Origin: a virus
IMG/VR virus record: IMGVR_UViG_3300020147_000009
Location: 530 to 64,529 of that record
Length of the DNA: 64,000 bases
Strand: one strand, 5' to 3'
Under the pieces are notes generated by a model. That model was not told where the DNA came from. It did no database searches and saw nothing but the letters and a program-made list of their open reading frames with translations. Below, one piece after another: positions 9,315 to 50,622 of this stretch (position 1 is the stretch's first letter; each line of letters opens with the position of its first letter). The position numbers and the translations under genes are program-made.

Positions 9315-10049
9315 TTAGAATTGTCTTGTTGATAGCTTCTTTTGGCTTGATACGTAATAATCTTCAATGAATTTGAAGTGTCTTTCATAGACATGAAGAG
9401 ACGAAGCTGACCAAATGATATCACCAACATCAACAAACAAATCTGCTGCTAACATCTTTAAAACATAACTTTGCCAAGCTCTGTCGTTCTTATATCCAAA
9501 TACTGCGTCGTTACTTCTCATCTTTACGTGGGCGTGAATCTTACCACCACGAATCAAATATGTTACAGAATCAGTGCAGATAAAGTCAGACATTCCGTCT
9601 TTATTATAATCTTTATGCATACTTGGACGAGTGTAAATCATATTTGCTCTACGAGAATATGGATTCTTCTTGAGTTCAGCCAAAACATTTTCGTATTGGT
9701 TTCCATTTTCTTCTGAGTAAATACACCAACCATAGTTAGAGTTAATCATCCCTGCTGAGCTTGCTACAGCCTTCCAGATTTCTGGAGCACCACCTGGGAT
9801 ATCAGCAACAAATCTTGATTTAGACTTATACCATTGAACTTCACGTTCAACATAGTCCCAATTAACTTCACCAAAAATGGATTCTTCAGAAGCTAAGAAA
9901 GTACAACCAACTAACTCAACCATCTTAACGCCGGATTTATCAATTACAAAATTACCAGCTCTATATCTTTTAGCTAAGGACTCCCTAATATATTCAATAT
10001 TATGGTATTCTTTAATAGTACCAAATTCATGATTATTTGCATTAATCAT
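9315..10049 (-). CDS. 42: dCMP hydroxymethylase (T4 gene 42 homolog)
   Basis: Strong collinear similarity to T4 gp42 (VDKSGVKMVEL, YKSKSRFV, EIWKAVASS, INSNYGW, NPYSRRANMIYTRPSM, DYNKDGMSDFICT, MRSNDAVFG); 244 aa vs 246. Confidence 0.9.
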   Translation of the reverse strand: MINANNHEFGTIKEYHNIEYIRESLAKRYRAGNFVIDKSGVKMVELVGCTFLASEESIFGEVNWDYVEREVQWYKSKSRFVADIPGGAPEIWKAVASSAGMINSNYGWCIYSEENGNQYENVLAELKKNPYSRRANMIYTRPSMHKDYNKDGMSDFICTDSVTYLIRGGKIHAHVKMRSNDAVFGYKNDRAWQSYVLKMLAADLFVDVGDIIWSASSLHVYERHFKFIEDYYVSSQKKLSTRQF

Positions 10050-10051
10050 AA

Positions 10052-10417
10052 TTACTCCTCAACATTCTTCTTTACTTGAACAGGTTTATTCAACCAATCT
10101 CTATCTGGTGTCTGACCGTCTACTTTTCCACGGCAATAAGCAACACCAAAACTACAATAGTTAATCAAATCAATCAAAGAATCTTCAATTGATTCAAAGT
10201 TTGGATTATATTCAGGGTCCATCTCCATAGCTTCCATGACTGACATAACACGAAGAAGTTTGCCATGAATTGAATCAACAATTGTTGCTAGGCCACGTGG
10301 ATAGTAATCAGCCTGTTTGATTCTTGATTTTGGGTTTTGATAGTCATTTGACTTTTTAAGTTGAAGCTCAGCAGCTTCTTGTAATACCTTAATAGATTCT
10401 TTATTTTCTTTAGCCAT
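10052..10417 (-). CDS. hypothetical protein (121 aa)
   Basis: ORF between gene 42 and MazG-like gene. Confidence 0.5.
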   Translation of the reverse strand: MAKENKESIKVLQEAAELQLKKSNDYQNPKSRIKQADYYPRGLATIVDSIHGKLLRVMSVMEAMEMDPEYNPNFESIEDSLIDLINYCSFGVAYCRGKVDGQTPDRDWLNKPVQVKKNVEE

Positions 10418-10418
10418 G

Positions 10419-10838
10419 TTATTCCTCGTAAAGTTTAGATAGAAGACCTACATTATCTGCGTGAGTTGGAGCTGTCCAACCGGTCGGTTTAATTAGGTCA
10501 GGAAGACCAAGTGGATTTGGTCGATTTGGATTAACGCCTGGGTTCTTAGCCATATTTGCAAAATGAACCCTATCCCAAGCCTCTTGAGCATCAACATCAA
10601 AAGCATTTAGGGTACCAATAGCGACAACACACAGGTCAATAAGAGCATCTACAACATCATCCGCATTTTTAGCGGTATTCATTTCATCAAGTTCTTCTTG
10701 AAGAAACTTGATTCTGAATTCAAGAAACTGTTTGAGCTTTTCTGGTGGAAGGTTTCTGATAACTTCGTTAACACCAAATTTTGTATGCATTGCAGCGATA
10801 TCTGCAATCCAGTCATTTTGAATAGCAATTCCGTACAT
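10419..10838 (-). CDS. MazG-like all-alpha NTP pyrophosphohydrolase (candidate dCTPase, gp56-like role)
   Basis: LKQFLEFRIKFLQEELDEM...DALIDLCVVAIG fits MazG/HisE-type EExxE/D motifs; adjacent to dCMP hydroxymethylase. Confidence 0.6.
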   Translation of the reverse strand: MYGIAIQNDWIADIAAMHTKFGVNEVIRNLPPEKLKQFLEFRIKFLQEELDEMNTAKNADDVVDALIDLCVVAIGTLNAFDVDAQEAWDRVHFANMAKNPGVNPNRPNPLGLPDLIKPTGWTAPTHADNVGLLSKLYEE

Positions 10839-23421: not shown

Positions 23422-25542
23422 TTATTGCTCTTTCGTAAATGACTTATGATTCAGTCTGTCTTTTTCTAATTGTTTTACTCTTGGAATAAGCTTAACTGAT
23501 AGTCTATTAAGGATAGCCTTAGACTTAGATAGTCTTTGTTCCAAACGCTCTTTTTCCGCTACCGACAGTTTATCCAAAGGCTTCTTAGCCAATCTTCTCT
23601 TAAGAGCCTTAACAGCAAGTCTTCTAGCTCTCTTGTTGATTGTCTTATTGTCACCCTTACGCTTAAGAGCAAGCTCAAGTCTTCTTTCTCTCTTCGCTTT
23701 AGTTCTTGCGAATCTAATCTTTGCTCTAATTCTTTCTGGTCTTGTCAGAACTTCATTTAATTTCTGAACGGCTTCTTCACTAAGTTCTTCATCTTCTTGG
23801 CTGCAACAAGCAACTTCTTCACCAGTATCAGCATCAATAATTGACAATTCTTCATCGTCATAAGCGTCAAGATAATCTTCTTCAAAGTCTAAGTGAGTAT
23901 TAATAATGCTTTCTAAATCTTCATCAGAAAGAGTATCTTCCAGAGATTGTTCACCATCATCTATAGTGAAGTCATTTAGGCTGTCAGCTTCCTTAATGTA
24001 AACATGCTTTGTTGGCTTATCCTTTTTAGTAAGGTCAACAATTTGAACATGCTTACCTACCTTAACGTCATCCTTAGCTTCCCAATGACCATCATTAATT
24101 TTCTTCATAACATGTTCATGGCTATGTTCTTCAGCTTCATTAATTTTCTTATGATTTTTTAATTCACTGACATGTTTATCCGCATCTTCTTTTGCAGTTT
24201 CACCTTTGAAAGTCTTAACAGTCTTACCGTTAGACATTACTCTATATTCATTATGCCCGATATGTTGTGACCAATGTTCTTCAGATTCTTCCTCAACCAA
24301 GGATTGGTCATAATTAATACCAGCATCCTTAGCAATCTTCAACATATTGTGGAAAGCCTTCCTTGATTTGGAAGTAAGCTTGATTGTTTTTGCTCTCGTT
24401 AAAGCATCATTTACTAACTCTTCTGGGCTCATGCCTCTAACGGCTTCCCCAAAGGTGTTAGCGATAATTACTGCTATCTTTTGTTTGTCAGAAGAATTAG
24501 CGCTCATTTCTATTAGTTCCTTAATGTAGGAGTGATTCTCTATTTGGTTTATATTTTCCAATAAAGAATACGCCTTCTCAACACATTCTTTATTAAATGT
24601 TACGAAATACTTATTTATATTTATAAAAGATGAAACAAGGGCCAGTTTATCCTTGAATTCCCCATTGATGTATGATTCATTGGTCTTTCTGAAAGATTCT
24701 TGAACCTCAACTGGCAAAGATTCAATATTGAAATATTTAGGATGATATTCTGATTTGGAAATTTTAACCTTATCCGGCCATTTCTTACTAATGACTCCGT
24801 CTTCAGTAATTACAGTCAGATAATTTGAACCAATATCTAGGACTTCATATATACCTTTATCATCCTCTACGATATCATCAACCTTGTAAAGTTTTCCTTG
24901 ATAGAAAGCTTCTCTTTCTGGTGCTATTTCAAGTTTAATTTGTTCTTGTATTGATGTTATCCCAAGACCGTTCTGGACGTCACTGAAATATCTCTTAGCA
25001 TCGAATAATGAAAGACTTTTTGGGATGCATTTTTTAAATGATTCGAAGTCTGATTTCCTGGCAAACTCCCTCATCTTTGTTCCGGAAATACCAGAAATTG
25101 ATTCAGAATCTGGGTCTCTGTCTCCAACAGAAACTACCTTTATTGAATCATATTGGTATGATTTACCATTATATTTATTCAGTCTATCCTCATATTCAGC
25201 TACCCTATCAGAGCCGGCTACCATGATGATATTCTTATATTTTCTATTGAGTCTACCAACGAAATGCATGAACGATGGAAGTTCATCAGTCGCTGGAATG
25301 AAATTAGTGCCTTTGGAAATTTTCTTTGCCCAGTAGAGTCTTTTTTCTACTGATAGAGGATTCTTATCTGAATCTTGAGATTTACTAAGAACTATTACAT
25401 GGTCTGCTTCAAGAGAAGCAGCAATTGATTTGACTTTATTTGTTAATAAGTCATGACCGGAAGTATAAGGATTGAATCTACCGAATGCAAATACTACTGT
25501 TGACTTTGGTAGCTTACGCACCAAGGTTTTAAAAGTTTTCAT
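23422..25542 (-). CDS. multidomain protein: N-terminal cytidylyltransferase-like nucleotidyltransferase domain, acidic central region, highly basic C-terminal tail (706 aa)
   Basis: VVFAFGRFNPYTSGHDLL = (G/T)xFxPxTxGH HIGH-type nucleotidyltransferase motif (TagD/PPAT/NMNAT-like); DE-rich stretch ~residues 520-590; C-term RKRERRLELALKRKG...KRRLAKK. Confidence 0.65.
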   Translation of the reverse strand: MKTFKTLVRKLPKSTVVFAFGRFNPYTSGHDLLTNKVKSIAASLEADHVIVLSKSQDSDKNPLSVEKRLYWAKKISKGTNFIPATDELPSFMHFVGRLNRKYKNIIMVAGSDRVAEYEDRLNKYNGKSYQYDSIKVVSVGDRDPDSESISGISGTKMREFARKSDFESFKKCIPKSLSLFDAKRYFSDVQNGLGITSIQEQIKLEIAPEREAFYQGKLYKVDDIVEDDKGIYEVLDIGSNYLTVITEDGVISKKWPDKVKISKSEYHPKYFNIESLPVEVQESFRKTNESYINGEFKDKLALVSSFININKYFVTFNKECVEKAYSLLENINQIENHSYIKELIEMSANSSDKQKIAVIIANTFGEAVRGMSPEELVNDALTRAKTIKLTSKSRKAFHNMLKIAKDAGINYDQSLVEEESEEHWSQHIGHNEYRVMSNGKTVKTFKGETAKEDADKHVSELKNHKKINEAEEHSHEHVMKKINDGHWEAKDDVKVGKHVQIVDLTKKDKPTKHVYIKEADSLNDFTIDDGEQSLEDTLSDEDLESIINTHLDFEEDYLDAYDDEELSIIDADTGEEVACCSQEDEELSEEAVQKLNEVLTRPERIRAKIRFARTKAKRERRLELALKRKGDNKTINKRARRLAVKALKRRLAKKPLDKLSVAEKERLEQRLSKSKAILNRLSVKLIPRVKQLEKDRLNHKSFTKEQ

Positions 25543-25588: not shown

Positions 25589-26710
25589 TCAGTCGTTCTT
25601 TTTGAAGTTTTGGTGTGAAAATTCAGTTCTATCAACTAATTTTACACTAGTTTCATAGAATGATGCTACGTAACCTTCGTGAGCACCATCGACACCAAGT
25701 ACAGAATTTTTATTGAGGTCATTGATGATACTTATTTTAAGATAATTAAGGTTATTTATTATCGTCAAAAAGTTCTCGACATGTTCCTGTGGCATTGCTT
25801 CAATTAATTTTTCTTTTTCAGCTTGATATCTGCGTTTTGTTGATTTCATCTTTCTGTTTCTTTTGATGTCATCATAATACTCATGGACAAATCTTATAAA
25901 ATCAACGTAATTACCAGATGGATAATAGCCTTTCCTTATACAATTGTTATAATATCTCTTAAATAAGAGTTTGGCTTTTTCTGTATTATCAACAGCTTCT
26001 ATGAATATGTAAGACTCTTCCAGAAGCTTGAATATATTAACGTGAATATTTCTAAATACATCATTATCTAAAGTTGACGTAACTTCGTCAAAATTATATG
26101 TTGCATCAATACACCACAGGTCACCAAAGTTTTTGAATTGTTCAGAAATTGGTGCACCAAACTCAGCTTTAAGTTTCTTCAAACTAGGTCCTGAATATTT
26201 GGTATGAAAAACTATTCCACATTGAGCATTAACGATATCATTACCTAGTTCACTATTAATAGGAACGAAATACTCAAGAGTATTAGTTTTAAAATAGTAT
26301 GAATCTAATCCTGTGATGATATCATCTTTTGTAAACATCAAGTCGCCTTGATAAATACCTTCTTTAATACCTAGCTGAGAACAAGTATTAAAGATAATCA
26401 TCATCTTATTAGCCAATTCAATATTGTCAATCATCTCATAAATACCATCAATTGACTTGTAAACCTCTGGTTCCTTATTGAATATAGACTTCTTGGCAAC
26501 AAAAAACGCACCATCTTCAGGGTCAATACCGATGAATACAGAAGGGGAGCCGTCATATTTGGTAGACATCTTAAGAACTTTGATGTTATTACCAGCCATC
26601 TTAGATAAGATTAAACTAATAATAGTCAGGGCTGTTACAGCTCCACTAACTCCTTCAAGAGCTAGTTCTTCTATATGTGGTAGGTGATTATTTATCATTT
26701 GACTATACAT
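25589..26710 (-). CDS. rnlA: RNA ligase 1 (T4 RnlA-like)
   Basis: Motif I KYDGS, C-terminal EGYVASFYE...VKLVD resembles T4 Rnl1 EGYVAVMKDGSHFKIK; 373 aa vs 374. Confidence 0.7.
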   Translation of the reverse strand: MYSQMINNHLPHIEELALEGVSGAVTALTIISLILSKMAGNNIKVLKMSTKYDGSPSVFIGIDPEDGAFFVAKKSIFNKEPEVYKSIDGIYEMIDNIELANKMMIIFNTCSQLGIKEGIYQGDLMFTKDDIITGLDSYYFKTNTLEYFVPINSELGNDIVNAQCGIVFHTKYSGPSLKKLKAEFGAPISEQFKNFGDLWCIDATYNFDEVTSTLDNDVFRNIHVNIFKLLEESYIFIEAVDNTEKAKLLFKRYYNNCIRKGYYPSGNYVDFIRFVHEYYDDIKRNRKMKSTKRRYQAEKEKLIEAMPQEHVENFLTIINNLNYLKISIINDLNKNSVLGVDGAHEGYVASFYETSVKLVDRTEFSHQNFKKND

Positions 26711-36182: not shown

Positions 36183-37571
36183 TTATTCCTTTGAGGAAGC
36201 CTTCTTAATAGCTTTAGTAGTTTCCTTCTCTGTTTCTTGAGCTACTACACCAAGCTTGTTAAGAAGGGCAGCTCCCTGTTCGGTATTTGAAAGACCTTCA
36301 AGCATCGAACCAAGTGCTACACCACCTTTGCTGGTCAGAACTTCAGACAAACTTTGAACACCGCCAGTTACCTCACCGGAGTTAACGATAATCTTGAGGT
36401 CAGCAGCTTCCAATGCCTTAGCATTTTCGATACCAATCTTCTCGTTAGCTTCAACTTGACGGACAGTAACCAGGTAGTTTTGGTAACCAACATTTTCGCC
36501 GATTTCTTTAGCCAATGTAATCTGAGTTTCAACAGGAGCCATAAGGATAGCAGTTTCTGCAGCACCTTTTGCTTCACCTTCAACTCGAATACCTTCAGCT
36601 GCTCGACGTTGAGCTTCCAAGTTACCTTCAGCAATAATAACTGTCTGTTCCTTGGTACCTTCAGCTTTAATAACTTGGGTACGCTTTTGTTCTTCAGCTT
36701 GAACGATTTTAACTTCTTTTTCGATGTCGGCCTTCTTAACTTCTTGAACCTTAACAACTTCCATCGACTTTTCAGTAGTTACCTTTTCTTGGGACTTGAT
36801 TTCTTGAAGGGCTTGTTCCTTCGCGATACCAACTTCCTTTTCTTTCTCGGCTGTTCGAATACCAACGGCTTGTTGAGCTTCTTGAGCACGAATATCAACA
36901 GCTTGTTTTGCTGCAAGTTCTGCAGTTTGGGCTTGCTTAGTGTTTTCAGCTACTTCAATACGTGATTGCATCTCAATCAAGGACTTCTTCTTTTCCATGA
37001 TGTTTTGAATCACCTTAGAGTCTTTGCTGTCGCGAATATCCATAAGTTCGATATTCTTAACTGTAGTAACACCCCAATGAGTAAGTTGTTCAGCCACTTC
37101 CTTGGTAAAAGCTTCACCAAACTCAGCACGACCTTGCATGATTTCTTCAATGTCTTTCGAAGCTAGAATAGTACGAGCAGCACCTTGTAGAATAGAGCGA
37201 AGCTGGTTATTTAGCTCTTGAACATTCGAAACTCTCTGAGCAGCAATGTTAGAGTCTGCAATACGGAAGAAAGCTTCCATATCAAGAACGAACGGCAATC
37301 TACCCTTGTCATAAGCATCATAACCTTCAAGACGCAGACTGAAGTTAGAAACTGGCAACTTAATAACTTGAATACCAATTACTGGAATCCAGCTTGGCCA
37401 TTCATAATATGTGTTACCATCAGAGAGGTCCTTACCATACGATGTAGTCTTCTTTCGAGACTGCACAATATGAACCTCATTTGTGTTCACTACACGGCGC
37501 AGTGACACTACCCAGACAGCGAAGCAAACTGCAATCGCCGCCAGTACAAGACTTCCAATAAGCATAATCAT
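36183..37571 (-). CDS. SPFH/band-7 (flotillin-like) membrane protein with long EA-rich coiled-coil
   Basis: N-terminal TM (LIGSLVLAAIAVCFAVWVV), SPFH-like core, extended A/E/K/Q repeats typical of flotillins. Confidence 0.7.
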   Translation of the reverse strand: MIMLIGSLVLAAIAVCFAVWVVSLRRVVNTNEVHIVQSRKKTTSYGKDLSDGNTYYEWPSWIPVIGIQVIKLPVSNFSLRLEGYDAYDKGRLPFVLDMEAFFRIADSNIAAQRVSNVQELNNQLRSILQGAARTILASKDIEEIMQGRAEFGEAFTKEVAEQLTHWGVTTVKNIELMDIRDSKDSKVIQNIMEKKKSLIEMQSRIEVAENTKQAQTAELAAKQAVDIRAQEAQQAVGIRTAEKEKEVGIAKEQALQEIKSQEKVTTEKSMEVVKVQEVKKADIEKEVKIVQAEEQKRTQVIKAEGTKEQTVIIAEGNLEAQRRAAEGIRVEGEAKGAAETAILMAPVETQITLAKEIGENVGYQNYLVTVRQVEANEKIGIENAKALEAADLKIIVNSGEVTGGVQSLSEVLTSKGGVALGSMLEGLSNTEQGAALLNKLGVVAQETEKETTKAIKKASSKE

Positions 37572-37603: not shown

Positions 37604-37903
37604 CTACTTTTCTTCTACTACATATTTTCCGGTTTCAATATCAAATCTTTCAACTTTTCCAGTTTCAATATTGAATCGGTCAAATCTTATCCCTAGCATA
37701 TAGGTAACTTTTGCTGGTATTGGACCAGCAAAGATACCGTTAAATTCAGGAATAAAATCCTTTTGACACTTATCACACCACAAGTGTCCTTTGAATTCAG
37801 ACCATTCACATTCATCGTTACCACAACTGCATGGACTGACTTCAAATTCTTTTGGTTTCTGTATATAGAACCAAGTTCTCTTTTCCAACTCAGGCATATT
37901 CAT
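37604..37903 (-). CDS. small zinc-binding protein with tandem 10-aa C-terminal repeat
   Basis: CSCGNDEC...CDKC; RFNIETGKVE / RFDIETGKYV encoded by ~30-bp tandem DNA repeat at 37620..37690. Confidence 0.5.
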   Translation of the reverse strand: MNMPELEKRTWFYIQKPKEFEVSPCSCGNDECEWSEFKGHLWCDKCQKDFIPEFNGIFAGPIPAKVTYMLGIRFDRFNIETGKVERFDIETGKYVVEEK

Positions 37904-39050
37904 CTGCTGCAGTTGTATGGTTGAATTCAGAGTAAACAGTTCTTAATGTATATTCACTCAAATAATTCTTTTCCCAGAAACCTTTATAATCTGGCTCCTT
38001 ACCATCGTAAAGTTTCATTGCAAGCCCAAAGAAAGAATAGCTTCTATATTTCTCAGCTGCATCCTTTCTTGTTGGTTCAGCTTTAATCAGTTCAAACATT
38101 TCTTCTGTTGCAGAAACTATTCCCTTCATTTCTTCAATGTATCGATTTTCAATAGCTTCAACTAAAGAAAGGTCATAATTTGATTCAACAATAGTTGACT
38201 TGATATCATCTAAGGTCTCATCAACGCACATGCGAGCTACGTCTCGTTCACGTAAGTCTGTATTGATATGGTGGCGAAGGTTGTACCAATTACACTTTGT
38301 CTTTACTCGAGTTCCATCCTCGAACGCGATGACGAAACCTTCCATACCACACATATTCTCAATTTGAGCTTCTATGTCTTCATAATTAGTCATTCCATCA
38401 AACTTCTTAACAACAGAAACGTTTGGGTTATCAATAGATAATAGAGAAGATGGCCATAGATTTTTATGTTCAACATATAAACCATTATACGAGTCTCTAA
38501 CGGCAATTAAAGTCCATGTTGGTTTTTGACCATAATCGACAACAATTTTCCAGTCAGGATGGGTGAATTCCCAAATTGGGGATAATCCAACATCAAGAGC
38601 AATTTTGGTAAGAGCTCTTACACATTCTGGAGCCATCTCATTTGCTAGCTTAGCTACATCAGAATAGAAAGATTTCTTAGTCTTGAAATATACTTCTCCA
38701 CCTATACAAACCGCAGTAATCATCGAGCCGTCTCGTTTTTCCAGAACTTCGAATGGTTGGTCCCAGTTCAAGTTGTGTACTTGAGTAGATTCTTTTTCAT
38801 TGATGTTGAAAAACTTAGGAAAAGCCATAGAGATTAGCTGACCAGTGTCCTTACGGAATACATGGCCGCGGCATTCCAAACCCATTGGTTTAGCCCAAAG
38901 TTCTGGAGATGCAATCATATAACATGGAATAACAACATCAATTCCACCAACAGTTTCTTCCTTGAATTGAACTGTCTTGTCGTCTCGTAAATGGTCAAAA
39001 TCACTTAGATGCATAATATTTTTCCTATTCCATCCTATATCAAGTGTCAT
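37890..39050 (-). CDS. RNA ligase-like nucleotidyltransferase (second KxDG ligase)
   Basis: Motif I LEKRDGSM, motif IV/V EGFVIAFEDGTRVKTK; 386 aa. Confidence 0.6.
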   Translation of the reverse strand: MTLDIGWNRKNIMHLSDFDHLRDDKTVQFKEETVGGIDVVIPCYMIASPELWAKPMGLECRGHVFRKDTGQLISMAFPKFFNINEKESTQVHNLNWDQPFEVLEKRDGSMITAVCIGGEVYFKTKKSFYSDVAKLANEMAPECVRALTKIALDVGLSPIWEFTHPDWKIVVDYGQKPTWTLIAVRDSYNGLYVEHKNLWPSSLLSIDNPNVSVVKKFDGMTNYEDIEAQIENMCGMEGFVIAFEDGTRVKTKCNWYNLRHHINTDLRERDVARMCVDETLDDIKSTIVESNYDLSLVEAIENRYIEEMKGIVSATEEMFELIKAEPTRKDAAEKYRSYSFFGLAMKLYDGKEPDYKGFWEKNYLSEYTLRTVYSEFNHTTAADEYA

Positions 39051-40885: not shown

Positions 40886-42082
40886 TTAATCTTCACCACC
40901 TTTCAACAGGAACTTGTTAGAGATTGCCTTGAATGTAAAGTTGCTGTCATGCGACTTAAACACTAGACCTTCTCTTACTTCGTTGTTGATACTTGCTCCA
41001 TCAGCGAAAGATAGCATTTCTTCAATGTTGTTGATACTAATGTCACTAAGATTAGTTTCAAAGTAAACAACAGGAACCCAATAGATATCAACACCAAAAT
41101 CCACTCTTAATCTATTAATGATGTTATGTCTCTCATCGGGAGTCATATATTTTTGTTTTTCGATATCCCAAATATCGAAGACATAGAACTTATGTTCACT
41201 GAAACCTTCACGGTTGCCTTGGATTCCAGGTCCCATGAGTTCTCCTTGGATAGCCATAGGGTACCCATAATCATATAGAGCTTGAATCAAACCAGAATTC
41301 TTGGCAACATCTACATAAGTATTGCCTTCCTGGTCTAACTTAAGGTTCATGTTTCTTGAGCATACACCTACCTCAGTCTTACAATCGCTGTGGTCAAAAC
41401 CAAATTCATGGTTGTAGTATACAGTCATAGAAGAACCATCAAGCTTAAGGGTTACTTCATACTTTTCATCCTTATGCTTTTCGAAGATGTCTCGTACCAA
41501 GTTTTGGCAACGTTCTTGGTCAGTTTTACGGATAAAACTAGGGAAAGAACCCCTAACCTGACCTGCTAATTGACCAGGAACAGGCTTCTCATATTTCTGG
41601 ATACCTAAAGCTTCAGTTACATCTTGTCCTTCAGAAACATTTTGAATATTTCCATCAATATGGTCAATATAATATCCACCATTTTCTGAATATTTAACTG
41701 GCATAATCAAACCTTGTGAAACTTGACCACGTAGCTTGATTGTTCTGAGTCTGGCACCAGGAACTCCATTGTATTCCTTTGGAATTCCACCCTTAGACAA
41801 AAACGGCGCAACTGAGTCAGGTACCCAAGAATCAATTTCAAAGTAGACTACAAGGTCTCCAACATTGAAACCGTTGTCGATTGCCGTTACAACCCACCAT
41901 CCACCAATTCGAGCCTTTACAATCTTGTCAGCTCCTTCAATTGGTTGGATTTCTTCAATTACACGAATTGTTGCAAGCTTACGAAACTTTGGCTCAGGAC
42001 TAGGCAATCCATCGTCATATGGAATACCAAAATATTCACCTTCTACCGTACCACGTTCTTCATCTACTTTAATTTCCATCAT
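40886..42082 (-). CDS. RNA ligase-like nucleotidyltransferase fused to N-terminal tRNA-binding OB-fold (Trbp111/EMAPII-like) domain
   Basis: N-term IEGADKIVKARIGGWWVVTAIDNGFNVGDLVVYFEIDS resembles the Trbp111/EMAPII tRNA-binding OB-fold; motif I VTLKLDGSS; motif IV EGLVFK. Confidence 0.55.
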   Translation of the reverse strand: MMEIKVDEERGTVEGEYFGIPYDDGLPSPEPKFRKLATIRVIEEIQPIEGADKIVKARIGGWWVVTAIDNGFNVGDLVVYFEIDSWVPDSVAPFLSKGGIPKEYNGVPGARLRTIKLRGQVSQGLIMPVKYSENGGYYIDHIDGNIQNVSEGQDVTEALGIQKYEKPVPGQLAGQVRGSFPSFIRKTDQERCQNLVRDIFEKHKDEKYEVTLKLDGSSMTVYYNHEFGFDHSDCKTEVGVCSRNMNLKLDQEGNTYVDVAKNSGLIQALYDYGYPMAIQGELMGPGIQGNREGFSEHKFYVFDIWDIEKQKYMTPDERHNIINRLRVDFGVDIYWVPVVYFETNLSDISINNIEEMLSFADGASINNEVREGLVFKSHDSNFTFKAISNKFLLKGGED

Positions 42083-42471
42083 TTTCCTCCATTATTTAAA
42101 TATAATTCACACTGTCTAATAATATCAACTTCAAACTTCTTGTCGTTCAATAATCTGTTTCTTGGGGAAGGATGTGGAAGTTTGAAATGGTCTATATTCA
42201 ACTTATTCAAAACTTCAGAAACAGTATTCCCAAGAGCTAAAACTTTATTATAATCCTTTATTGAATAAATTGATACAACATTTATATCATTTTTATTTGG
42301 GGTTTTTGAGACATATTCAATTATATTCATGAAAGAATAATACTGAATACCAAGTATATCCATCCACTTATTAAGTCTATCAAGTGTCGAATTCCGGGCA
42401 ACCCTAATCCTAGCGGATGGATTAAGACCTACCACTATGACTTTAGGATTGCTTGAAGGGGAATAATTCAA
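42079..42471 (-). CDS. uracil-DNA-glycosylase-superfamily-like small protein
   Basis: VIVVGLNPS near N-term and KLPHPSPRNR near C-term resemble UDG family 4/5 motifs; only 130 aa. Confidence 0.35.
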   Translation of the reverse strand: MNYSPSSNPKVIVVGLNPSARIRVARNSTLDRLNKWMDILGIQYYSFMNIIEYVSKTPNKNDINVVSIYSIKDYNKVLALGNTVSEVLNKLNIDHFKLPHPSPRNRLLNDKKFEVDIIRQCELYLNNGGK

Positions 42472-43895: not shown

Positions 43896-44948
43896 TTAGA
43901 AATACTTACTTAAGTTGGAAACAGTATCACATGAAGTGTCATCTACTTGTCTAGCAATCTTGCGTTTTGATATTAAATGTGGGTTTTCTTTCAACCAACA
44001 GTAAACACCGAATTGACACAAACCGACTTCTAAACCATACACTTTTAAGTTGTTTTGCTCATCTTTGAACACTTTTTTGTTGTTTATTTCATAGTTATGG
44101 AAGAACTGGTGGATAGTGATATGATTCAACAACGTGGACTGGTTATCTCTCAACCAGACTACCATTTCTCCATACTTTCTTTTACCGGTATAACTGTCAA
44201 AGATGTAGTCAAGAGATGATCTTGCTCCAGGACCAGGTGCACAGAATTCCTCATCATGTTGGAACGGAAGATACGGATTGACTGAATTAGACGTGGCGCA
44301 GTGATAACCATAATATTCACCAATGCCTGGTTTTGAAGTCAAAATACCATACATATCCTTTAGAGTAATAGCGTCGTTTTTTATCCTTTCGAACGTTCCA
44401 TCTGATTTCCAAGATGCAATCCATTCGATGATATCCGATAAGGAAGCTTCTCTATCTGGTTCTCCATACTTATTTCTACAGAAATTTCTTGCAGCTGTTT
44501 GCAAAGATGTATGGAGCTCGGTAGTACCATAAAATTTCTTCTTTGCTTTCTTTGAGATATCAATCTGAGTCTTGATGTTATTCAAATACTCAATATCACC
44601 AGCATCTATTCGTTCAAAATCGACATGAGCCTTCTTGTAGTCCTTAATGCCAGTGACAATTTCATGAATACCTCTAGCGCCATAGAAGTGGGATATAATT
44701 GTGTTACCAATCTTATTATCCATAGATAGAGAATCAACTGTTACGATGTTCTCAATGATGTATCTCATACGGTCATCTTGGAGAATATTGAAACCAAAGT
44801 ATTCAACATCTTCATCAAGAGCTGGGTCATCTACAGGAGGGTCGTATCTGTCACGTAGATTGAATTGATATTCAGTTCGTTCATTAACTTTTATTAGGAA
44901 TTGTTCAAACTCTTCAAGTCTTTTCTTATTCAAATTGTTCGATAGCAT
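43896..44948 (-). CDS. hypothetical protein (350 aa), first gene of the putative sugar/cyclitol cluster
   Basis: Long ORF; no motif recognised; HCATSNSVNPYLPFQHDEEFCAPGPGARS conserved-looking core. Confidence 0.55.
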   Translation of the reverse strand: MLSNNLNKKRLEEFEQFLIKVNERTEYQFNLRDRYDPPVDDPALDEDVEYFGFNILQDDRMRYIIENIVTVDSLSMDNKIGNTIISHFYGARGIHEIVTGIKDYKKAHVDFERIDAGDIEYLNNIKTQIDISKKAKKKFYGTTELHTSLQTAARNFCRNKYGEPDREASLSDIIEWIASWKSDGTFERIKNDAITLKDMYGILTSKPGIGEYYGYHCATSNSVNPYLPFQHDEEFCAPGPGARSSLDYIFDSYTGKRKYGEMVVWLRDNQSTLLNHITIHQFFHNYEINNKKVFKDEQNNLKVYGLEVGLCQFGVYCWLKENPHLISKRKIARQVDDTSCDTVSNLSKYF

Positions 44949-45318
44949 GCCTTACGTTTTCTTTTTCAATAAACGGTGTGTGAATTCTAACTACTTTTAG
45001 CCAAGGACATAGGTTCTCGATGATACTAGCTTGTACGTCGTCATCCTCAAAGTGGATTCCAATTTCCATGCCATGTCTTTTGAGGTAATTAAGAGTATTG
45101 GCCTTATGTTCACCAGAAGATTCTCGAGTTTTATTCTCCCATTCAAGAGGATTGTAAAACACAAGATTATCAATATCTTTACTATGAAGCATAGCTTCAG
45201 TTTCTGGTTTCTCCTCATAGGACCTACCAGTTACAATGATGTCGTTCTTATCTGGTTTAAGGCCGTTTAGATATTTTCCCAGATAGATTACACCATCAAT
45301 GTCATATGAATTAATCAT
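44926..45318 (-). CDS. small HAD-superfamily phosphatase-like protein
   Basis: YDIDGVIY = HAD motif I (DxDGV). Confidence 0.5.
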   Translation of the reverse strand: MINSYDIDGVIYLGKYLNGLKPDKNDIIVTGRSYEEKPETEAMLHSKDIDNLVFYNPLEWENKTRESSGEHKANTLNYLKRHGMEIGIHFEDDDVQASIIENLCPWLKVVRIHTPFIEKENVRHAIEQFE

Positions 45319-46026
45319 TTAATTCCTTGAGAAATGTCCTAGAATTAGGCATGGTTTTTGAAAAACTTCACATACTTTTTCGAAGTGGATAACTGGAAAT
45401 TGTTTCTTAAGTTGTTCGGCAAGAACCCACATCATTTCATTCTGTTCCTTACGGAAACCGTGAAGTTCTACAGCAATTTCCTTAACATAGTCGGGAAATG
45501 TGTAGTCCATCAAGATACCATATTCTCCACCTTCAATATCCATTTTAACTAAATTTGGTTTAATCTTATCAAGTTCAGTATAGAAATTAAAAGCAACAAC
45601 ATCAATTTTTAATTTTCTAGTGGATGGATTAGTTGAACCAGAACAAGCAGATTTCTTACTCTTACCCATATAAAAAGAAATTCCAGGTTCATTTGTTGCA
45701 ATAAGAGCAACTTGATGAGCTAAAACTATTTTATTACTATCGACTTGATCGAGATTTTTCAATAAAACTGAAAAATTGAATTCTTCAGGTTCGTATGCAA
45801 TAACTTCCCTTGCACCACCTTGAACTGCTCGTGCTGTGAATGAACCAATATTCGCTCCACAATCCATAACGACTTTGTTTTCAAACGTCAGAGTTGGATA
45901 ATCACCAGTACCTTCCTTAATCATATCGAAGTCGGAAGTATTTGGTCGATAGAAAAGGTTGAACTTCTTACTAAATTGAAGTTCAACCTCTTGAACGTTT
46001 AAATCCTTATCATAATATTTGTACAT
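45319..46026 (-). CDS. FkbM-family SAM-dependent methyltransferase
   Basis: VMDCGANIGSFT (motif I) and VKMDIEGGEYGIL (FkbM signature). Confidence 0.7.
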   Translation of the reverse strand: MYKYYDKDLNVQEVELQFSKKFNLFYRPNTSDFDMIKEGTGDYPTLTFENKVVMDCGANIGSFTARAVQGGAREVIAYEPEEFNFSVLLKNLDQVDSNKIVLAHQVALIATNEPGISFYMGKSKKSACSGSTNPSTRKLKIDVVAFNFYTELDKIKPNLVKMDIEGGEYGILMDYTFPDYVKEIAVELHGFRKEQNEMMWVLAEQLKKQFPVIHFEKVCEVFQKPCLILGHFSRN

Positions 46027-46093
46027 TTCACTTTATCCATAATTAAAAAGACAATTCTATTATAATGCAAATTAGATTTAAAGTACATATTTC

Positions 46094-47251
46094 TTATACA
46101 GAATTATGTTTTCTTGTGATTTCAGTCCATTCACGGTTTGCCAATGCTTTACATTCTTCATAAGCATCTTGAATCATCATCTGAGTTGGTGGAGTCTTTT
46201 GTGTAGATGCAGAAGGTCCACGAAGAGAACCGACCATACCCATTTCACGAGCTACTTGAACGTATCTAATAGCATCGATAACTACACCAGCAGAATTTGG
46301 AGAATCTTGAACAGATAAACGTGCATCAAAAATTACTGGCGCGCCGCCAAAACCTTCTGCCTCAATACGGAAATGAGCAACCTTATTATCTCCGTGATAG
46401 GCAATATAAGAAGAAGGACCAGCATAGATACCGTTCTTTGGAACTGGAATTCCACGAATATCATTCTGTGAACGAATCACGTTTTCCTTGGAGATTTTCT
46501 TTGAGGCCAAACGACTCTGGTCCATCATGTTCAAGAAGTCAGTGTTACCACCGTGGTTGGTTTGTTCATGGAACTTTACCTTCATACCACGATTAAAGAA
46601 CAATTCTTGAAGGGCTTGAGACATTACAGAAGCACCAAGTTGGCTACGCATGTCGTCCCCGATTGCTGGAATTCCGGCTTCTTTCAAACGGCCTTCCCAA
46701 TATGGGTCAGATACAATAAAGACAGGAATACAATTTACGAAAGGAACCTTTGCTTCCAAACAACCTTCGATATAGAATCTTGTTGCCGTTTCAGAACCAA
46801 CTGGCAGATAGTTAAGAACTACATCAACATCGTTATCAATTAAATCCTGAACAAACTTTTCCTTTGTAAGTTCTGGGTCCTTTGTTGGACGGAATGATTC
46901 ATCTTCATCCCATGTCAGCATATGAGGTGCAACACCATCAAACAAAGCACCACGCTTTACTTTAACACCTTCCAACATGTGATTGTAATAATTCTGAATA
47001 TCGGAAGTTGTCAATAAATCAATTGCACAATTTGGTTTCGCTTGAAGGGCTTCAGATAATGGACGACCAACCTTGCGTTTATCAATATCATAAGCCAGAA
47101 CGAAACTAATATTTCCTGCTGTATAACCACCAATGTCCGCAAAAGCAAGACCATCCGTACGACCAGTTGCTGAATATAATGCAACACCTTCAACTAGAGA
47201 CTTTGCGCAGTTACCTACACCAATGATTGCTACTTTAATTACATCTTTCAT
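46094..47251 (-). CDS. myo-inositol-1-phosphate synthase family protein (bacterial Ino1-like, NAD-dependent)
   Basis: IKVAIIGVGNCAKSLVEGV, DVVLNYLPVGSE, GDDMRSQLGASV...LQELF resemble the Rossmann and active-site segments conserved in bacterial Ino1-type enzymes; 385 aa. Confidence 0.7.
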   Translation of the reverse strand: MKDVIKVAIIGVGNCAKSLVEGVALYSATGRTDGLAFADIGGYTAGNISFVLAYDIDKRKVGRPLSEALQAKPNCAIDLLTTSDIQNYYNHMLEGVKVKRGALFDGVAPHMLTWDEDESFRPTKDPELTKEKFVQDLIDNDVDVVLNYLPVGSETATRFYIEGCLEAKVPFVNCIPVFIVSDPYWEGRLKEAGIPAIGDDMRSQLGASVMSQALQELFFNRGMKVKFHEQTNHGGNTDFLNMMDQSRLASKKISKENVIRSQNDIRGIPVPKNGIYAGPSSYIAYHGDNKVAHFRIEAEGFGGAPVIFDARLSVQDSPNSAGVVIDAIRYVQVAREMGMVGSLRGPSASTQKTPPTQMMIQDAYEECKALANREWTEITRKHNSV

Positions 47252-47351
47252 TACTTTTTACCTTTATTTCAGTTGTTTCGTGATTTTCTTGAGACCACAG
47301 GCAGAATTTTGTTTCGTTTTAGAAAGTAGCTGCCCTAAAAACTCATAGAAG

Positions 47352-47359
47352 TATTTATA
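47352..47359 (-). promoter_or_regulatory. late promoter box TATAAATA upstream of MIPS-like gene
   Basis: Plus gtatttataa; about 100 nt upstream of ATG 47251. Confidence 0.4.
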
Positions 47360-47378
47360 ATCACAGAAGAGAACTATA

Positions 47379-48419
47379 TTAAAAATTTTTCAAACTAATT
47401 GTGGTGGGTGTGACAGAATTTGGTTTATTATCCCAATAATTCCATTTATGATGGATTGGGGCTAGATGAACACTCTTTGGTCTTTCCATATAGTCTTTCA
47501 TATAGGACAAAGGTGATATTGTATACCATTCTGTAGGCCACTTAATAGTTTCCCACTTATTACTACTGCACATTTCAGACAGATAATAGGAAAATACACG
47601 AACTACTTCCTGTCTTTCTTTTGTTGACCCAAAGAATGGAGTTCCTTCAAAGTAACCAGTTTTTGGTAACCTACGAGACTCATCCTCAATTGGCAACGGA
47701 AATACTATTTTAATCTTTTTTCCTAATTCTTGTAAACTTTTTTCATAGGATTTTACGAGCATTTCGACATATTCAACAACATTAAAATTTCTCATTATAT
47801 GATGTCGAATATCTATGTTTCCGTAGTATGAAATGATAGTGTCTATTGAATCAAGGTCAAAACCATGGTCCAGTATTTCCTTTTTAATGGACTTCTTCAA
47901 TACACCATTGAGTGTTCTTCCATCTTTACGAAGAACCATTGACTTTCCGTCATAAACGGAAAAAGCATGAGAATCACCAACAATCAGTGAATTGAGTTTC
48001 AAATCTGCTTGGGTGAAATGAGGAATTGTTTTACATTTTTCGGTGACGGCATCCCAATTAACGTTTCTCCAATAATCCTCACAGGACTTAAGTCTGCCTT
48101 TGCACAGTGTTCCATAATCTGGCATTGGAATATCCAACGAGATGAGTTCAACATTTGGATTTACTGTAATGATTCTCTCATAGAATTTCGCTGATTCTTC
48201 TGATGCACCACCGAAGAGATTCAGAGTACCTTGAAACTCCATTGAGTGGTATAGATATACCCTATCAAAGTGGTTCCAGGATTGATTCTCTGTGATGACA
48301 GTTACGTCGAAGCCAAACTTATTCTTTAATTGACAGGCCCAAAGATGGGCCCAACCGGCCTTATGTGAATATCTTGATGATGAGAGATTTCCGCCTACGA
48401 GAGTTATTGCTACTTTCAT
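47379..48419 (-). CDS. T4 beta-glucosyltransferase (Bgt)-like DNA glycosyltransferase
   Basis: N-terminal MKVAITLVGGNLSS...FDRVYLYHSMEFQGTLNLFGG parallels T4 Bgt MKIAIINMGNNVIN...YDRLIVVNSSINFFGG; 346 aa vs 351; C-terminal half not obviously similar. Confidence 0.45.
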   Translation of the reverse strand: MKVAITLVGGNLSSSRYSHKAGWAHLWACQLKNKFGFDVTVITENQSWNHFDRVYLYHSMEFQGTLNLFGGASEESAKFYERIITVNPNVELISLDIPMPDYGTLCKGRLKSCEDYWRNVNWDAVTEKCKTIPHFTQADLKLNSLIVGDSHAFSVYDGKSMVLRKDGRTLNGVLKKSIKKEILDHGFDLDSIDTIISYYGNIDIRHHIMRNFNVVEYVEMLVKSYEKSLQELGKKIKIVFPLPIEDESRRLPKTGYFEGTPFFGSTKERQEVVRVFSYYLSEMCSSNKWETIKWPTEWYTISPLSYMKDYMERPKSVHLAPIHHKWNYWDNKPNSVTPTTISLKNF

Positions 48420-50094: not shown

Positions 50095-50622
50095 TCATTT
50101 CTTTGTATTCTTGTCTGCCCAATCGAGGTCCAAGTCTTCCTTATATTCTCGTTCGAGGTATAGATGGAACTTAGGAATTTCAATATCCTCAATAGACATA
50201 TCACCAATGTCGTATGACAAAGTAACATGTGGTTTATATTCAGGATAATCAAATGTTGCACCATGTTCCTTCATTAAGTACTTATGTCTCTTTATCAAAC
50301 CATCACAATCAAGTTTGAGAACTAGACAGTTCTTTCCTCCCTGAGAAGGCCAAATTTCCAAACTTTCAACTTGAGCCGAATATGGGTTCTTATAGTAACC
50401 TTCAGGTCTGAAATTAGGTAGAAACTTCCTAGAATACAGGATAGTCACATGGAACTTATTCATCGGAATTACGTTAGGAACATCAATATCTTCAGCAAAC
50501 TTTGCCAGTCGTTCTTGGCTATTTTTACCAAATCTTGCTCCACAATAAGTTCCTGTTTTATCGGTGGATTCATTTACTTTATTAATTGTGAATCCAATAT
50601 ATTCTAGAAAAGTTTTCAACAT
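50095..50622 (-). CDS. 2H phosphoesterase (LigT/CPDase-like; Acb1-like candidate)
   Basis: Two H-x-T-x motifs: FHVTILY and PHVTLSY. Confidence 0.65.
   Translation of the reverse strand: MLKTFLEYIGFTINKVNESTDKTGTYCGARFGKNSQERLAKFAEDIDVPNVIPMNKFHVTILYSRKFLPNFRPEGYYKNPYSAQVESLEIWPSQGGKNCLVLKLDCDGLIKRHKYLMKEHGATFDYPEYKPHVTLSYDIGDMSIEDIEIPKFHLYLEREYKEDLDLDWADKNTKK

Follow-up and report, generated by a model that had tools for sequence, protein, structure and literature searches.

A conserved phage gene cassette that may decorate 5-hydroxymethylcytosine with an inositol-type ring

Our analysis of a DNA stretch of 64,000 nucleotides (the window) from an uncultured T4-like phage revealed a widespread, undescribed gene cassette that most likely decorates 5-hydroxymethylcytosine (hmC) with an inositol-type ring made by the phage itself. 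At a probability of roughly 0.45, we propose that its five genes constitute a cassette for post-replicative hypermodification of hmC in phage DNA, one that would use no nucleotide-sugar donor. The genes of the cassette, together with those for hmC supply, are as follows.

47379-48419, minus strand: p5, a two-domain enzyme (Bgt N-domain-like part and SGNH fold)
47352-47359, minus strand: TATAAATA, a T4 late-promoter-like box (consensus match only)
46094-47251, minus strand: MIPS-family NAD-dependent cyclitol-phosphate synthase (PF01658)
45319-46026, minus strand: FkbM-family SAM-dependent methyltransferase, an optional tailoring enzyme (PF05050, TIGR01444)
44926-45318, minus strand: minimal (cap-less) HAD-superfamily phosphatase (HAD motifs, PHROG 415)
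43896-44948, minus strand: p1, an HhH-glycosylase-fold "DNA base hypermodification" protein (Pfam HMUDK_hel)
10419-10838, minus strand: MazG-like nucleotide pyrophosphohydrolase, candidate dCTPase (PF01503, 5e-8; PHROG 671, 2.5e-20)
10052-10417, minus strand: DUF1599 ("nucleotide modification associated domain 1"; PHROG 1485, 3.3e-13)
9315-10049, minus strand: gene 42-type dCMP hydroxymethylase, hmC substrate supply (T4 gp42 similarity)

Layout, conservation and hmC supply

All five co-directional ORFs between 43896 and 48419 are present at the coordinates given in an earlier note on this DNA, and most of its labels held; a glycosyltransferase spanning the whole of 47379-48419 and a "350-aa unknown" did not. 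Neighbouring ORFs overlap or abut, except at two junctions that leave 127 nt and 67 nt between them. The larger gap, between p5 and MIPS, holds the late-promoter box that had been noticed before, TATAAATA, about 100 nt upstream of the MIPS start. This octamer occurs 12 times in the window versus 7.6 expected, an enrichment that is not significant, and 11 of the 12 copies are on the coding strand.

Comparison of related loci supports reading the cluster as a functional module that has been conserved, not as genes adjacent by chance. We found at least 572 p5-carrying loci in IMG/VR, and dozens of viral contigs carry the cassette in the same gene order. The p5 gene was seen on viral and MAG contigs only and not in isolate genomes. 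Among the 28 loci with MIPS and adequate flanks, which we treated as complete cassettes, the HAD gene is always present (28/28), p1 nearly so (26/28) and FkbM frequently (21/28); in each of them all the genes occupy one strand, the median span being 4.7 kb. The order p5-MIPS-HAD-(FkbM)-p1 is fixed despite p5 proteins being just 35-60% identical, and three loci (L003, L005 and L006) show the same order.

The sequence also supports the view that this phage makes hm-dCMP. The product of gene 42, recognized earlier as a dCMP hydroxymethylase, is 53% identical to T4 gp42 (1e-79 to T4 gp42 structures, 1b5e), and its SDFICT and MRSND..KND motifs place Asp at the equivalents of ThyA L143, D169 and N177. 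Judged by the criteria of PMC13326640, it is of the hm-dCMP type and not of the 5-hydroxy-dCMP type. The dCTPase candidate likewise proved to be MazG-like, and between the two genes lies the DUF1599 protein, whose match to PF07659 (0.0019) is under the cut-off. Although 34 kb separate gene 42 from the cassette in this window, MazG-DUF1599-gene 42 appears as a unit also in L014, L016 and L072, directly followed by the cassette in the first two. In two further loci, L021 and L042, true Bgt homologs are found inside the cassette. Both the gene 42 adjacency and the internal Bgt support a tie between the cassette and hmC.

The DNA-directed proteins p5 and p1

Residues 1 to ~101 of p5 align to the N-terminal (acceptor) domain of T4 Bgt (hhalign probability 93.2%, E 3e-7; controls 0.2% and 0.04%), and there the alignment stops. 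In the p5 loop N67-x-F69-G70-G71, N67 and G70-G71 align to N70 and G73-G74 of Bgt, and D96 aligns to the catalytic base D100; both families keep these positions with little or no variation. Residues ~140-330 adopt the fold of an SGNH/GDSL hydrolase or acyltransferase, in which G148-D-S150-H, N201 and H318 are invariant. Invariant Arg and His residues are numerous in p5, and its conserved surface is unusually rich in them (NID[IV]RHH). No Pfam family matches the p5 protein of the window: PF09198 gave no match and no Pfam GDSL model was significant. The earlier perception of Bgt likeness in the N-terminal half is thus correct for residues 1-101, whereas the label "glycosyltransferase" for the entire gene has to be rejected. 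p5 is a new enzyme in which the DNA-binding half of Bgt is joined to an esterase-type domain that replaces the sugar-nucleotide domain. SGNH enzymes are catalysts of acyl transfer, not of phosphoryl transfer, and to our knowledge none is known to act on DNA.

These features bear directly on the earlier idea that p5 is a Bgt-type glycosyltransferase by which hmC would receive a non-glucose donor in nucleotide-activated form, made by the MIPS-family enzyme, the phosphatase, the methyltransferase, a cytidylyltransferase-like protein and an FdtA cupin. The homology of the N-terminal ~100 residues to the acceptor domain favors it, and the window does encode the cupin (3.5e-31) as well as the cytidylyltransferase-like N-domain (2e-6). 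However, the C-terminal half of p5 is an SGNH fold, PF09198 does not match, the donor-site residues R191, R195, R269 and E272 of Bgt have no counterpart, and the model is left without its key enzyme because p5 lacks the GT-B C-terminal, NDP-sugar-binding domain. Moreover, 563 records of cultured phages, most of them cyanophages, have the cytidylyltransferase-like gene but no cassette. It is, by this distribution, a core gene of cassette-less marine T4-like phages and therefore does not speak for donor activation. None of the 85 related loci contains the cupin, and the links suggested for these two genes lack support. Sequence comparison thus largely refutes this model, which we consider highly improbable. 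What stands of the earlier interpretation is the provision of hm-dCMP, the module itself and its tie to hmC.

The other DNA-directed protein, p1, is the supposed unknown of 350 residues; it matches Pfam HMUDK_hel (PF18723) at 1.4e-14. Its best structural match is the DNA-modifying transferase PaMx11 gp46 (PDB 8z2m), with which it has no sequence-profile similarity, and it shares its HhH fold with the amino-acid:DNA transferases (AADT), which act on activated 5-hydroxymethyluracil. Two motifs are invariant in p1, P238-G-P-G-A and E307-x3-C311. The latter corresponds to catalytic E243/C247 of PaMx11 gp46, and PGPGA and E..C-x-F motifs are also common to p1 and PaMx11 gp50. In Pfam, p1 falls together with the helical domain of 5-hmdU DNA kinases and may only bind the base without catalyzing transfer; the invariance of E-x3-C argues for a catalytic role, and p1 is probably the central transferase of the cassette.

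In Aeromonas phages 44RR/31, p5 and p1 form a single polypeptide (hhalign 99.9%), a layout that parallels 5-hmdU DNA kinases, in which a catalytic (kinase) domain is joined to a helical domain (HMUDK_hel). Neither this fusion nor the HMUDK_hel/AADT likeness of p1 had been noticed in the earlier reading. Phages 44RR/31 carry genes 42 and 56 and lack a glucosyltransferase (PMC2993671). The fusion adjoins a solute symporter, the closest relative of which is a Na+/galactose transporter, and the phages have neither MIPS nor HAD; this suggests that an unphosphorylated solute is used, and the symporter suits a free sugar as well as inositol.

Might the target of the cassette be something other than DNA, such as free nucleotides before replication, RNA or tRNA, or host metabolism served by an auxiliary metabolic module? 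We regard this as quite unlikely, given that the p5 N-domain is homologous to a domain that binds hmC in DNA, that the best structural match of p1 modifies DNA and that gene 42 adjoins the cassette, or Bgt lies within it, in some phages. Pre-replicative modification would also require a polymerase that accepts a bulky cyclitol-dCTP.

Small-molecule enzymes and the nature of the adduct

Profile searches bore out the earlier MIPS and FkbM labels. The protein encoded at 46094-47251 matches Inos-1-P_synth (PF01658) at 1.9e-25 and is similar over its full length to M. tuberculosis Ino1 (1gr0, 3e-72) and Ari2 (6k96, 6e-47), actinobacterial Ino1 being closest. The N-terminal GxGxxA, NxGGNxDF, SKKISK and DSPNSAG blocks are kept, but the catalytic Lys of GDDxK is replaced by Arg (GDDMRSQ in 41 of the 43 motif-bearing cassette homologs). 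This position is Ala in Ari2 and remains Lys in the Stenotrophomonas phage MIPS; the Lys-to-Arg change is, in the sequences compared, lineage-specific. Because of this replacement and a TIGR03450 score of 300 bits, under the equivalog cut-off of 638 bits, the product may not be myo-inositol phosphate. The FkbM protein exceeds the cut-offs of both PF05050 (8.5e-14, 52.5 bits) and TIGR01444 (6.7e-19, 68.7 bits). The assignment of 44926-45318 to minimal HAD proteins also holds: four motifs are invariant in its family (D6-x-D8-G-V, T30-G-R, S68-G-x-H-K72 and E91-D-D93) and its best PHROG match is PHROG 415, polynucleotide kinase/phosphatase (8.6e-10). The window protein itself has no Pfam match; four of nine relatives match PF03767.

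In about half of its loci, p5 is accompanied instead by a PLP enzyme and an unknown protein, so the cyclitol part is not obligatory for p5 function. On one hand, these loci and Aeromonas phage 25, where p5 occurs without MIPS or p1, could mean that p5 alone installs a final O-acyl (e.g. O-acetyl) ester on hmC with p1 aiding base access, while MIPS, HAD and FkbM make a compatible solute or another metabolite unrelated to DNA. Acyl transfer would be standard chemistry for the SGNH fold, and Stenotrophomonas, Caulobacter and Ralstonia phages have a MIPS homolog but neither p5 nor p1. On the other hand, the strict single-strand order over ~4.7 kb across such divergent p5 proteins is difficult to account for unless the genes share a pathway, MIPS is placed between two DNA-directed proteins, and the cassette MIPS has its own Lys-to-Arg change. 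We therefore deem this alternative unlikely.

Similarly doubtful, in our estimate, is the possibility that the cyclitol phosphate itself is joined to hmC by a ring-hydroxyl ether or a phosphodiester, with p5 possibly as the transferase, p1 as a base-flipping partner and HAD removing or trimming the phosphate of the DNA-bound adduct. Such a scheme would mirror the mycothiol and PI-mannoside pathways, where inositol phosphate serves as acceptor and loses its phosphate later. It would account for the top PHROG of HAD, whose members act on DNA-bound phosphate, and for the presence of HAD in every complete cassette; the invariant Arg and His of p5 could hold a phosphate, and Pfam places p1 with a non-catalytic helical domain of 5-hmdU kinases. 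Yet SGNH chemistry is not phosphoryl transfer, the E-x3-C motif speaks for a catalytic p1 and the Aeromonas fusion points to an unphosphorylated solute.

Proposed pathway and comparison with known systems

Given that the phage makes hm-dCMP and that the module is conserved and tied to hmC, one can reasonably predict that hmC carries a cyclitol or O-methyl-cyclitol adduct. In the pathway that we favor, p5 would bind flipped-out hmC in the manner of Bgt, and its SGNH serine would put an acyl group on the 5-CH2OH, creating a leaving group and thereby playing the part of the P-loop kinase in thymidine hypermodification. Cys311 of p1 would then add to C6 and expel the leaving group, and the resulting exocyclic methylene would capture a hydroxyl nucleophile. 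This nucleophile would be a cyclitol derived from hexose phosphate by the MIPS-family enzyme, dephosphorylated by the HAD phosphatase before or after attachment and O-methylated by the FkbM enzyme. This route would yield 5-[(O-methyl)inosityl-oxymethyl]cytosine. If so, the ether-linked carbocycle would escape recognition by nucleases and glycosidases. In the literature searched, we found no description of such an adduct or of a comparable cassette, in line with the earlier note.

Each component has known relatives from which it departs. T4 Bgt (GT63, PF09198) shares with p5 the invariant N-x-F-G-G loop, an Asp at the D100 position and occurrence in gene 42-positive phages, but p5 has an SGNH esterase/acyltransferase domain in place of the UDP-glucose-binding C-terminal Rossmann domain. 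Unlike SGNH/GDSL O-acyltransferases and esterases such as PatB, OatA (C-domain) and PAF acetylhydrolase, p5 is cytoplasmic, phage-encoded and fused to a DNA-glucosyltransferase acceptor domain. The cassette MIPS differs from Ino1 (TIGR03450, 1gr0) and from Ari2 (6k96), a MIPS-like five-membered cyclitol-phosphate synthase, in being encoded by a phage between DNA-directed enzymes.

The arabinosyl-5-hydroxycytosine pathway of RB69/DLP3 is also found in T4-like phages, where a thymidylate-synthase homolog feeds non-glucose hypermodification of cytosine and a phage gene cluster includes sugar-phosphate enzymes and a phosphatase. It employs a D169N 5-hydroxy-dCMP synthase, an NDP-arabinose donor and GT-B arabinosyltransferases (PMC13326640), whereas gene 42 of the window has Asp at 169, as in hydroxymethylases, and the cassette encodes neither a nucleotidyltransferase nor a complete glycosyltransferase. 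The thymidine hypermodification systems of M6, ViI and PaMx11 (gp46), in which a 5-hmdU DNA kinase works with aGPT-Pplase2/AADT (PMC8989533, PMC11472151), offer the proposed parallel in chemistry: a 5-hydroxymethylpyrimidine in DNA is activated and then substituted via an exocyclic methylene. The cassette differs from them in its base, hmC rather than hmU, in lacking a P-loop kinase, a PLP decarboxylase and a radical-SAM enzyme, in an activating partner that would be the SGNH/Bgt-N chimera, and in its predicted nucleophile, a cyclitol where theirs is an amino acid or a polyamine.

A conserved gene cassette in an uncultured T4-like virus

Our results point to a recurrent five-gene cassette as a module for the hypermodification of hmC in phage DNA, a reading to which we assign a probability of roughly 0.7. 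In the window, the cassette is a cluster of co-directional ORFs at 43896-48419:

47379-48419 (-): p5, with a T4 Bgt-like N-terminal domain and a predicted SGNH-type C-terminal domain
46094-47251 (-): homolog of myo-inositol phosphate synthase (MIPS)
45319-46026 (-): FkbM methyltransferase
44926-45318 (-): 130-aa HAD-like protein
43896-44948 (-): p1, with a Pfam HMUDK_hel domain

The ORFs of the FkbM methyltransferase, the 130-aa protein and p1 abut or overlap, and gaps of 127 nt and 67 nt lie on either side of the MIPS gene. The TATAAATA box that an earlier note on this DNA had taken for a late promoter before the MIPS gene is indeed present, at 47352-47359 in the 127-nt gap, the first of the cassette; however, it is a consensus match only, the window holding 12 such matches against 7.6 expected.

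On its minus strand, the window carries a succession of T4-like genes for replication and nucleotide metabolism, among them those for a B-family DNA polymerase, UvsX, a gp41-like helicase, primase, RNR, RNase H, DNA ligase and two RNA ligases. Since the DNA polymerase is at most 49% identical to that of any cultured phage, its closest relatives being marine T4-like cyanophages, we regard the virus as a distant, as yet uncultured myovirus of the T4-like type. A 124-kb metagenomic contig encodes the same p5. Several other genes of the window deserve mention in their own right. The two RNA ligases are encoded at 37890-39050 and 40886-42082, both on the minus strand; one is T4 Rnl1-like, and in the other an RNA_ligase domain is combined with a PHA02142 OB-fold. 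A gene at 36183-37571 encodes an SPFH/Band 7 protein. Two genes downstream of the cassette, a small 130-aa protein (42079-42471, minus strand) has UDG superfamily and DUF1643 matches near the Pfam cut-offs. According to the gene table of an identical contig, a 175-aa protein at 50095-50622 (minus strand) belongs to Acb1 (Pfam), the anti-CBASS 2H phosphodiesterase family, and an Acb1 gene also lies directly upstream of p5 in a 395-kb phage contig (L005).

The claim that this phage makes hmC holds. Its gene 42 (9315-10049) encodes a protein 53% identical to T4 gp42, preceded by a MazG-like pyrophosphohydrolase and a DUF1599 protein. By the criteria of Lee et al. 2026 (PMC13326640), a hydroxymethylase can be told from a 5-hydroxy-dCMP synthase by the catalytic Cys, Asp at the equivalents of ThyA L143 and N177, and an Asp where the synthase has Asn, at the equivalent of D169. 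The protein has the motifs SDFICT and MRSNDAVFGYKND, and Asp at all three equivalents (L143, D169 and N177), residues that mark it as a hydroxymethylase, not a 5-hydroxy-dCMP synthase. On its other side, an FdtA/WxcM-type cupin gene (PF05523, 3.5e-31; 8889-9314, minus strand) abuts the gene 42 stop. The earlier note had counted this cupin, together with a 706-aa cytidylyltransferase-like protein (23422-25542, minus strand), among the enzymes of a donor pathway, and comparison supports neither. Homologs of the cupin occur in none of 85 related loci, making it unique to this phage among them, and no other dTDP-sugar enzymes are encoded nearby. The 706-aa protein, considered as a possible CDP-inositol synthase, was rejected as cassette-specific because its N-domain occurs in 563 cultured phages that lack the cassette, mostly cyanophages and including a pelagiphage (HTVC008M); it is part of the gene complement shared by marine T4-like phages without the cassette. 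It adjoins a DUF6267 protein (25589-26710, minus strand), to which it is fused in PHROG 455.

The proposal that the cluster represents a pathway is borne out by gene order, which we compared across 80 fetched IMG/VR p5 loci together with loci of other origin. Among them, p5-MIPS-HAD-(FkbM)-p1 recurs in this order, all on one strand. Where MIPS and adequate flanks are present (28 loci), HAD is found in all 28, p1 in 26 and FkbM in 21, with a median span of 4.7 kb. In two loci (L014 and L016) the cassette lies directly 3′ of MazG-DUF1599-gene 42, and the thymidylate-synthase homologs next to it belong to the dCMP-hydroxymethylase type. Two further loci have true T4 Bgt homologs within the cassette (L021:3344-4372, E 3e-16; L042:3392-4438, E 2e-11), between the HAD gene and FkbM/p1; in L042, Bgt takes the place of FkbM. 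Other neighbors vary. In contig L006 (5267-7428), p1 is followed by a C5 DNA methyltransferase and an NAD-dependent epimerase/dehydratase. In L005 (10914-14133), MIPS and p1 are separated by an AAA protein, an oxygenase of the 2OG-Fe(II) type, an ATP-grasp (R2K) protein and an acetyltransferase of the GNAT type, and FkbM is followed by a GT4. These neighbors suggest further tailoring, or hmC derived from 5mC.

A megablast search of the cluster against 50,697 phage genomes gave no match, and none of the cultured phages in this collection has the full cassette. Its components are scattered there: MIPS is limited to phages of Stenotrophomonas, Caulobacter and Ralstonia; p5 to phage IME13 and phages of Aeromonas and Tenacibaculum; and p1 to phages of Aeromonas and a single phage of Pseudomonas. 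Outside viral sequences, p5 is absent from isolate genomes and confined to 22 MAG contigs, a distribution restricted to phages.

Domain composition of the cassette proteins

Family searches of p5 against Pfam and NCBIfam returned no match, and the only informative methods were structure prediction and profile-profile comparison. A confident model (pLDDT 90.6) was built on 40 of 729 metagenomic relatives. The earlier note had described p5 as a Bgt-like glycosyltransferase, the likeness lying in its N-terminal half. On that half the note was right: residues 1-101 align with Bgt 1-105 at an hhalign probability of 93.2% (E 3e-7), compared with 0.2% and 0.04% for control pairs of unrelated profiles. 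This likeness became convincing only once an alignment of 26 Bgt-family proteins was used as the Bgt profile, single-sequence comparison with T4 Bgt being merely suggestive (hhalign 22%, BLASTP pair E 0.014). The p5 motif N67-L-F-G-G71 falls on Bgt N70-F-F-G-G74 and p5 D96 on Bgt D100, which we take from the Bgt structural literature to be the catalytic base; the aligned N67, G70-G71 and D96 positions are invariant or near-invariant in both families. However, p5 lacks the C-terminal UDP-glucose-binding Rossmann domain (R191, R195, R269, E272) that completes the GT-B fold of T4 Bgt (PF09198/GT63), with which it shares the acceptor domain only, and the model indicates that the protein as a whole is not a GT-B enzyme.

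The C-terminal part of the model has instead a flavodoxin-like SGNH fold. We compared the block I GDS Ser, the oxyanion Gly and Asn of blocks II and III, and the block V His; the putative counterparts in p5, G148-D-S150-H, G172, G200-N201 and H318 (with E312), are invariant in the 40 sequences, the spacing of block V being atypical. Because the N-terminal half aligns with the acceptor (hmC-DNA) domain of Bgt and an acyl-transfer domain replaces the UDP-glucose domain, p5 is a chimera: the acceptor half of Bgt with a predicted acyl-transfer domain at the place of the sugar-donor domain. The window cassette therefore encodes no glycosyltransferase, and nothing in it speaks for an activated NDP donor.

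Far from being an unknown of 350 aa, as it was first described, p1 matches HMUDK_hel (PF18723), the helical domain of 5-hydroxymethyl-dU DNA kinases, at 1.4e-14 (54.6 bits against a cut-off of 25). The same domain is found in 120 of 120 p1 relatives among the matches listed, one of which is named 'putative DNA base hypermodification protein' at NCBI. The protein is helical throughout, and its longer relatives show PF18723 only. No P-loop kinase domain is fused to or adjoins p1, and none of the five cassette proteins belongs to a kinase family. With PaMx11 gp46, p1 shares an HhH-glycosylase-like fold. Its invariant E307-V-G-L-C311 agrees in spacing and relative position with gp46 E243-T-I-L-C247, its putative counterpart, and PaMx11 gp50 can be aligned with this E-x3-C motif too. 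Catalysis by gp46 and related enzymes depends on a Cys that has a Glu close by: the Cys attacks C6, phosphate departs, and the resulting exocyclic methylene takes up a nucleophile (PMC8989533, PMC11472151). The p1 profile matched no PDB sequence, p1 matched no aGPT-Pplase Pfam family, and hhalign of the p1 family against gp46 gave a probability of only 0.2%. Since profile-level similarity to gp46 is absent, membership of p1 in aGPT-Pplase clade 2/AADT, the amino-acid:DNA transferases (PaMx11 gp46, M6 gp51, ViI gp247), is not established; its fold and motif agree with gp46-type transferases.

The MIPS and FkbM labels given earlier were both correct. The MIPS homolog matches Inos-1-P_synth (PF01658; 1.9e-25) with 89.6 bits, where the cut-off is 27, and is similar to Ino1 of M. 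tuberculosis (3e-72) and to Ari2, a five-membered cyclitol-phosphate synthase (6e-47). At 300.2 bits, it stays below the 638-bit cut-off of the NCBIfam equivalog TIGR03450, above which the same function would be implied. The catalytic lysine of the GDDxK helix corresponds to fungal K391 (PMC11348189). The window protein has GDDMRSQ, with Arg at this position, as do 41 of the 43 cassette homologs having the motif; the counterparts are GDDIKSQ in M. tuberculosis and GDDLAS, with Ala, in Ari2. This substitution suggests that the ring made by the cassette enzyme may not be myo-inositol. A homolog 55% identical to that of the window, in Stenotrophomonas phage Marzo (L001:6992-8242), keeps the Lys and lies within a 7-deazaguanine cluster of GTP cyclohydrolase, QueC-like proteins and a DpdA-like transglycosylase. 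These Menderavirus phages are devoid of p5 and p1, and the Marzo locus may specify a different cyclitol-linked base modification.

FkbM scores above both cut-offs (PF05050, 52.5 bits against 22.7; TIGR01444, 68.7 against 37.7). As for the presumed HAD phosphatase, all four HAD motifs (D6-I-D8-G-V, T30, K72, D92-D93) are invariant in the family alignment, the protein matches PHROG 415 (polynucleotide kinase/phosphatase) at 8.6e-10, and four of nine relatives match PF03767 (HAD subfamily IIIB); however, the 130-aa protein of the window itself has no HAD match in Pfam or NCBIfam and no PDB match by sequence or profile.

Alternative partners of p5

The cultured Aeromonas carriers of p5 are precisely the T4-like phages 44RR, 31 and 25, for which genes 42 and 56 but no glucosyltransferase were reported (Petrov et al. 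2010, PMC2993671). Arrangements of p5 that differ from that of the window are as follows:

L002:4408-8388: Aeromonas phage 44RR2.8t, ORF234c and ORF233c, a p5-p1 fusion adjoining a Na+/solute symporter
L089:5001-6047: Aeromonas phage 25, p5 alone
L060:9956-15189 and L072:9315-12661: examples of a second cassette type, p5 followed by 'X' and PALP, found also in L055, L065 and L088

The p5-p1 fusion, represented by PHROG 17781 and by ORF233c (795 aa) and shared by Aeromonas phages 44RR and 31, repeats the layout of hmU kinases, in which a catalytic domain is joined to HMUDK_hel. Neither MIPS nor HAD is present beside the fusion, and a symporter in their absence is compatible with a polyol or sugar used in free form, without a phosphate. 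We considered an inositol importer, but the closest solved relative of the symporter is the Vibrio Na+/galactose transporter vSGLT (3e-103); the match thus does not identify inositol, and no such claim can be made.

In the second cassette type, to which around half of the p5 loci belong, the partners are an uncharacterized 300-400-aa protein, 'X' (304-405 aa in the five loci named above), a fold-type II PLP enzyme (PALP) and sometimes a CitG-like protein; in L072 the set directly follows a gene 42 homolog. The idea that 'X' is a divergent p1 was dropped, its profile having no similarity to p1 or PaMx11 gp46. This cassette type may encode a different hypermodification of hmC. The alternative partner sets suggest that p5 is a general chassis for hmC processing.

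Proposed chemistry and relation to known systems

How sensitive phage DNA is to restriction, CRISPR and type IV systems depends on its hypermodifications, which are also a source of DNA-labelling enzymes. For the present cassette we can offer a best guess at the chemistry, to which we give slightly less than even odds. p5 would bind flipped hmC as Bgt does, and D96 would activate the 5-CH2OH for attack on an acyl-Ser150 intermediate, leaving an ester as the leaving group. C311 and E307 of p1 would then generate the exocyclic methylene, to which p1 would join a hydroxyl nucleophile, presumably the MIPS-family product after dephosphorylation by HAD. FkbM, missing in a quarter of complete cassettes, would contribute an optional O-methylating step. 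The earlier note's observation is largely confirmed and its interpretation partly supported. A cyclitol-type adduct on hmC was a sensible prediction, apparently undescribed according to our literature searches; its odds, in our estimate, range from doubtful to even. If real, such an adduct, isobaric with glucosyl-hmC (419.15 Da) yet ether-linked and glycosidase-proof, could have been misread as a hexose.

The most far-reaching version of this proposal is also rather unlikely: that the base modification made by the cassette is the first carbocyclic one (inositol-type, in part O-methylated), an SGNH acyltransferase with the hmC-binding domain of Bgt activating the hydroxymethyl on the DNA side and an AADT-like cysteine enzyme substituting it, with the p5 chassis defining a family of hmC hypermodifications. 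If true, such a family, built on p5 with other partners, would include the long-unexplained fate of hmC in Aeromonas phages 44RR, 31 and 25. This would be a concrete answer for gene 42-positive T4-like phages without glucosyltransferases, and one testable in these cultured phages. p5, the signature enzyme, is common in nature, occurring in at least 572 IMG/VR loci, and a chimera of Bgt-N and SGNH domains could serve as a tool for esterifying 5hmC in DNA.

Our literature search found no description of phage DNA modification systems that involve inositol, SGNH enzymes or HMUDK_hel alone. To our knowledge, hmC is decorated in all known cases by glycosylation from NDP-sugars, and activate-then-substitute chemistry is known on hmU only. 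If the proposal is right, this chemistry extends to cytosine; the activating enzyme would be new, and so would the class of group appended, the cyclitol. The hmU pathways follow the same activate-then-substitute logic with an HhH-fold Cys enzyme as proposed here; in them phosphate fills the leaving-group role, whereas in the cassette it would be an ester installed by p5. The substrate-recognition domain, for its part, is borrowed from Bgt. By their defining features, the system lies outside the Bgt, 5-HMUDK and aGPT-Pplase2 families. Hypermodification of 5-hydroxymethylpyrimidines is a known kind of phage chemistry, and the enzyme composition of this cassette is unprecedented within it.
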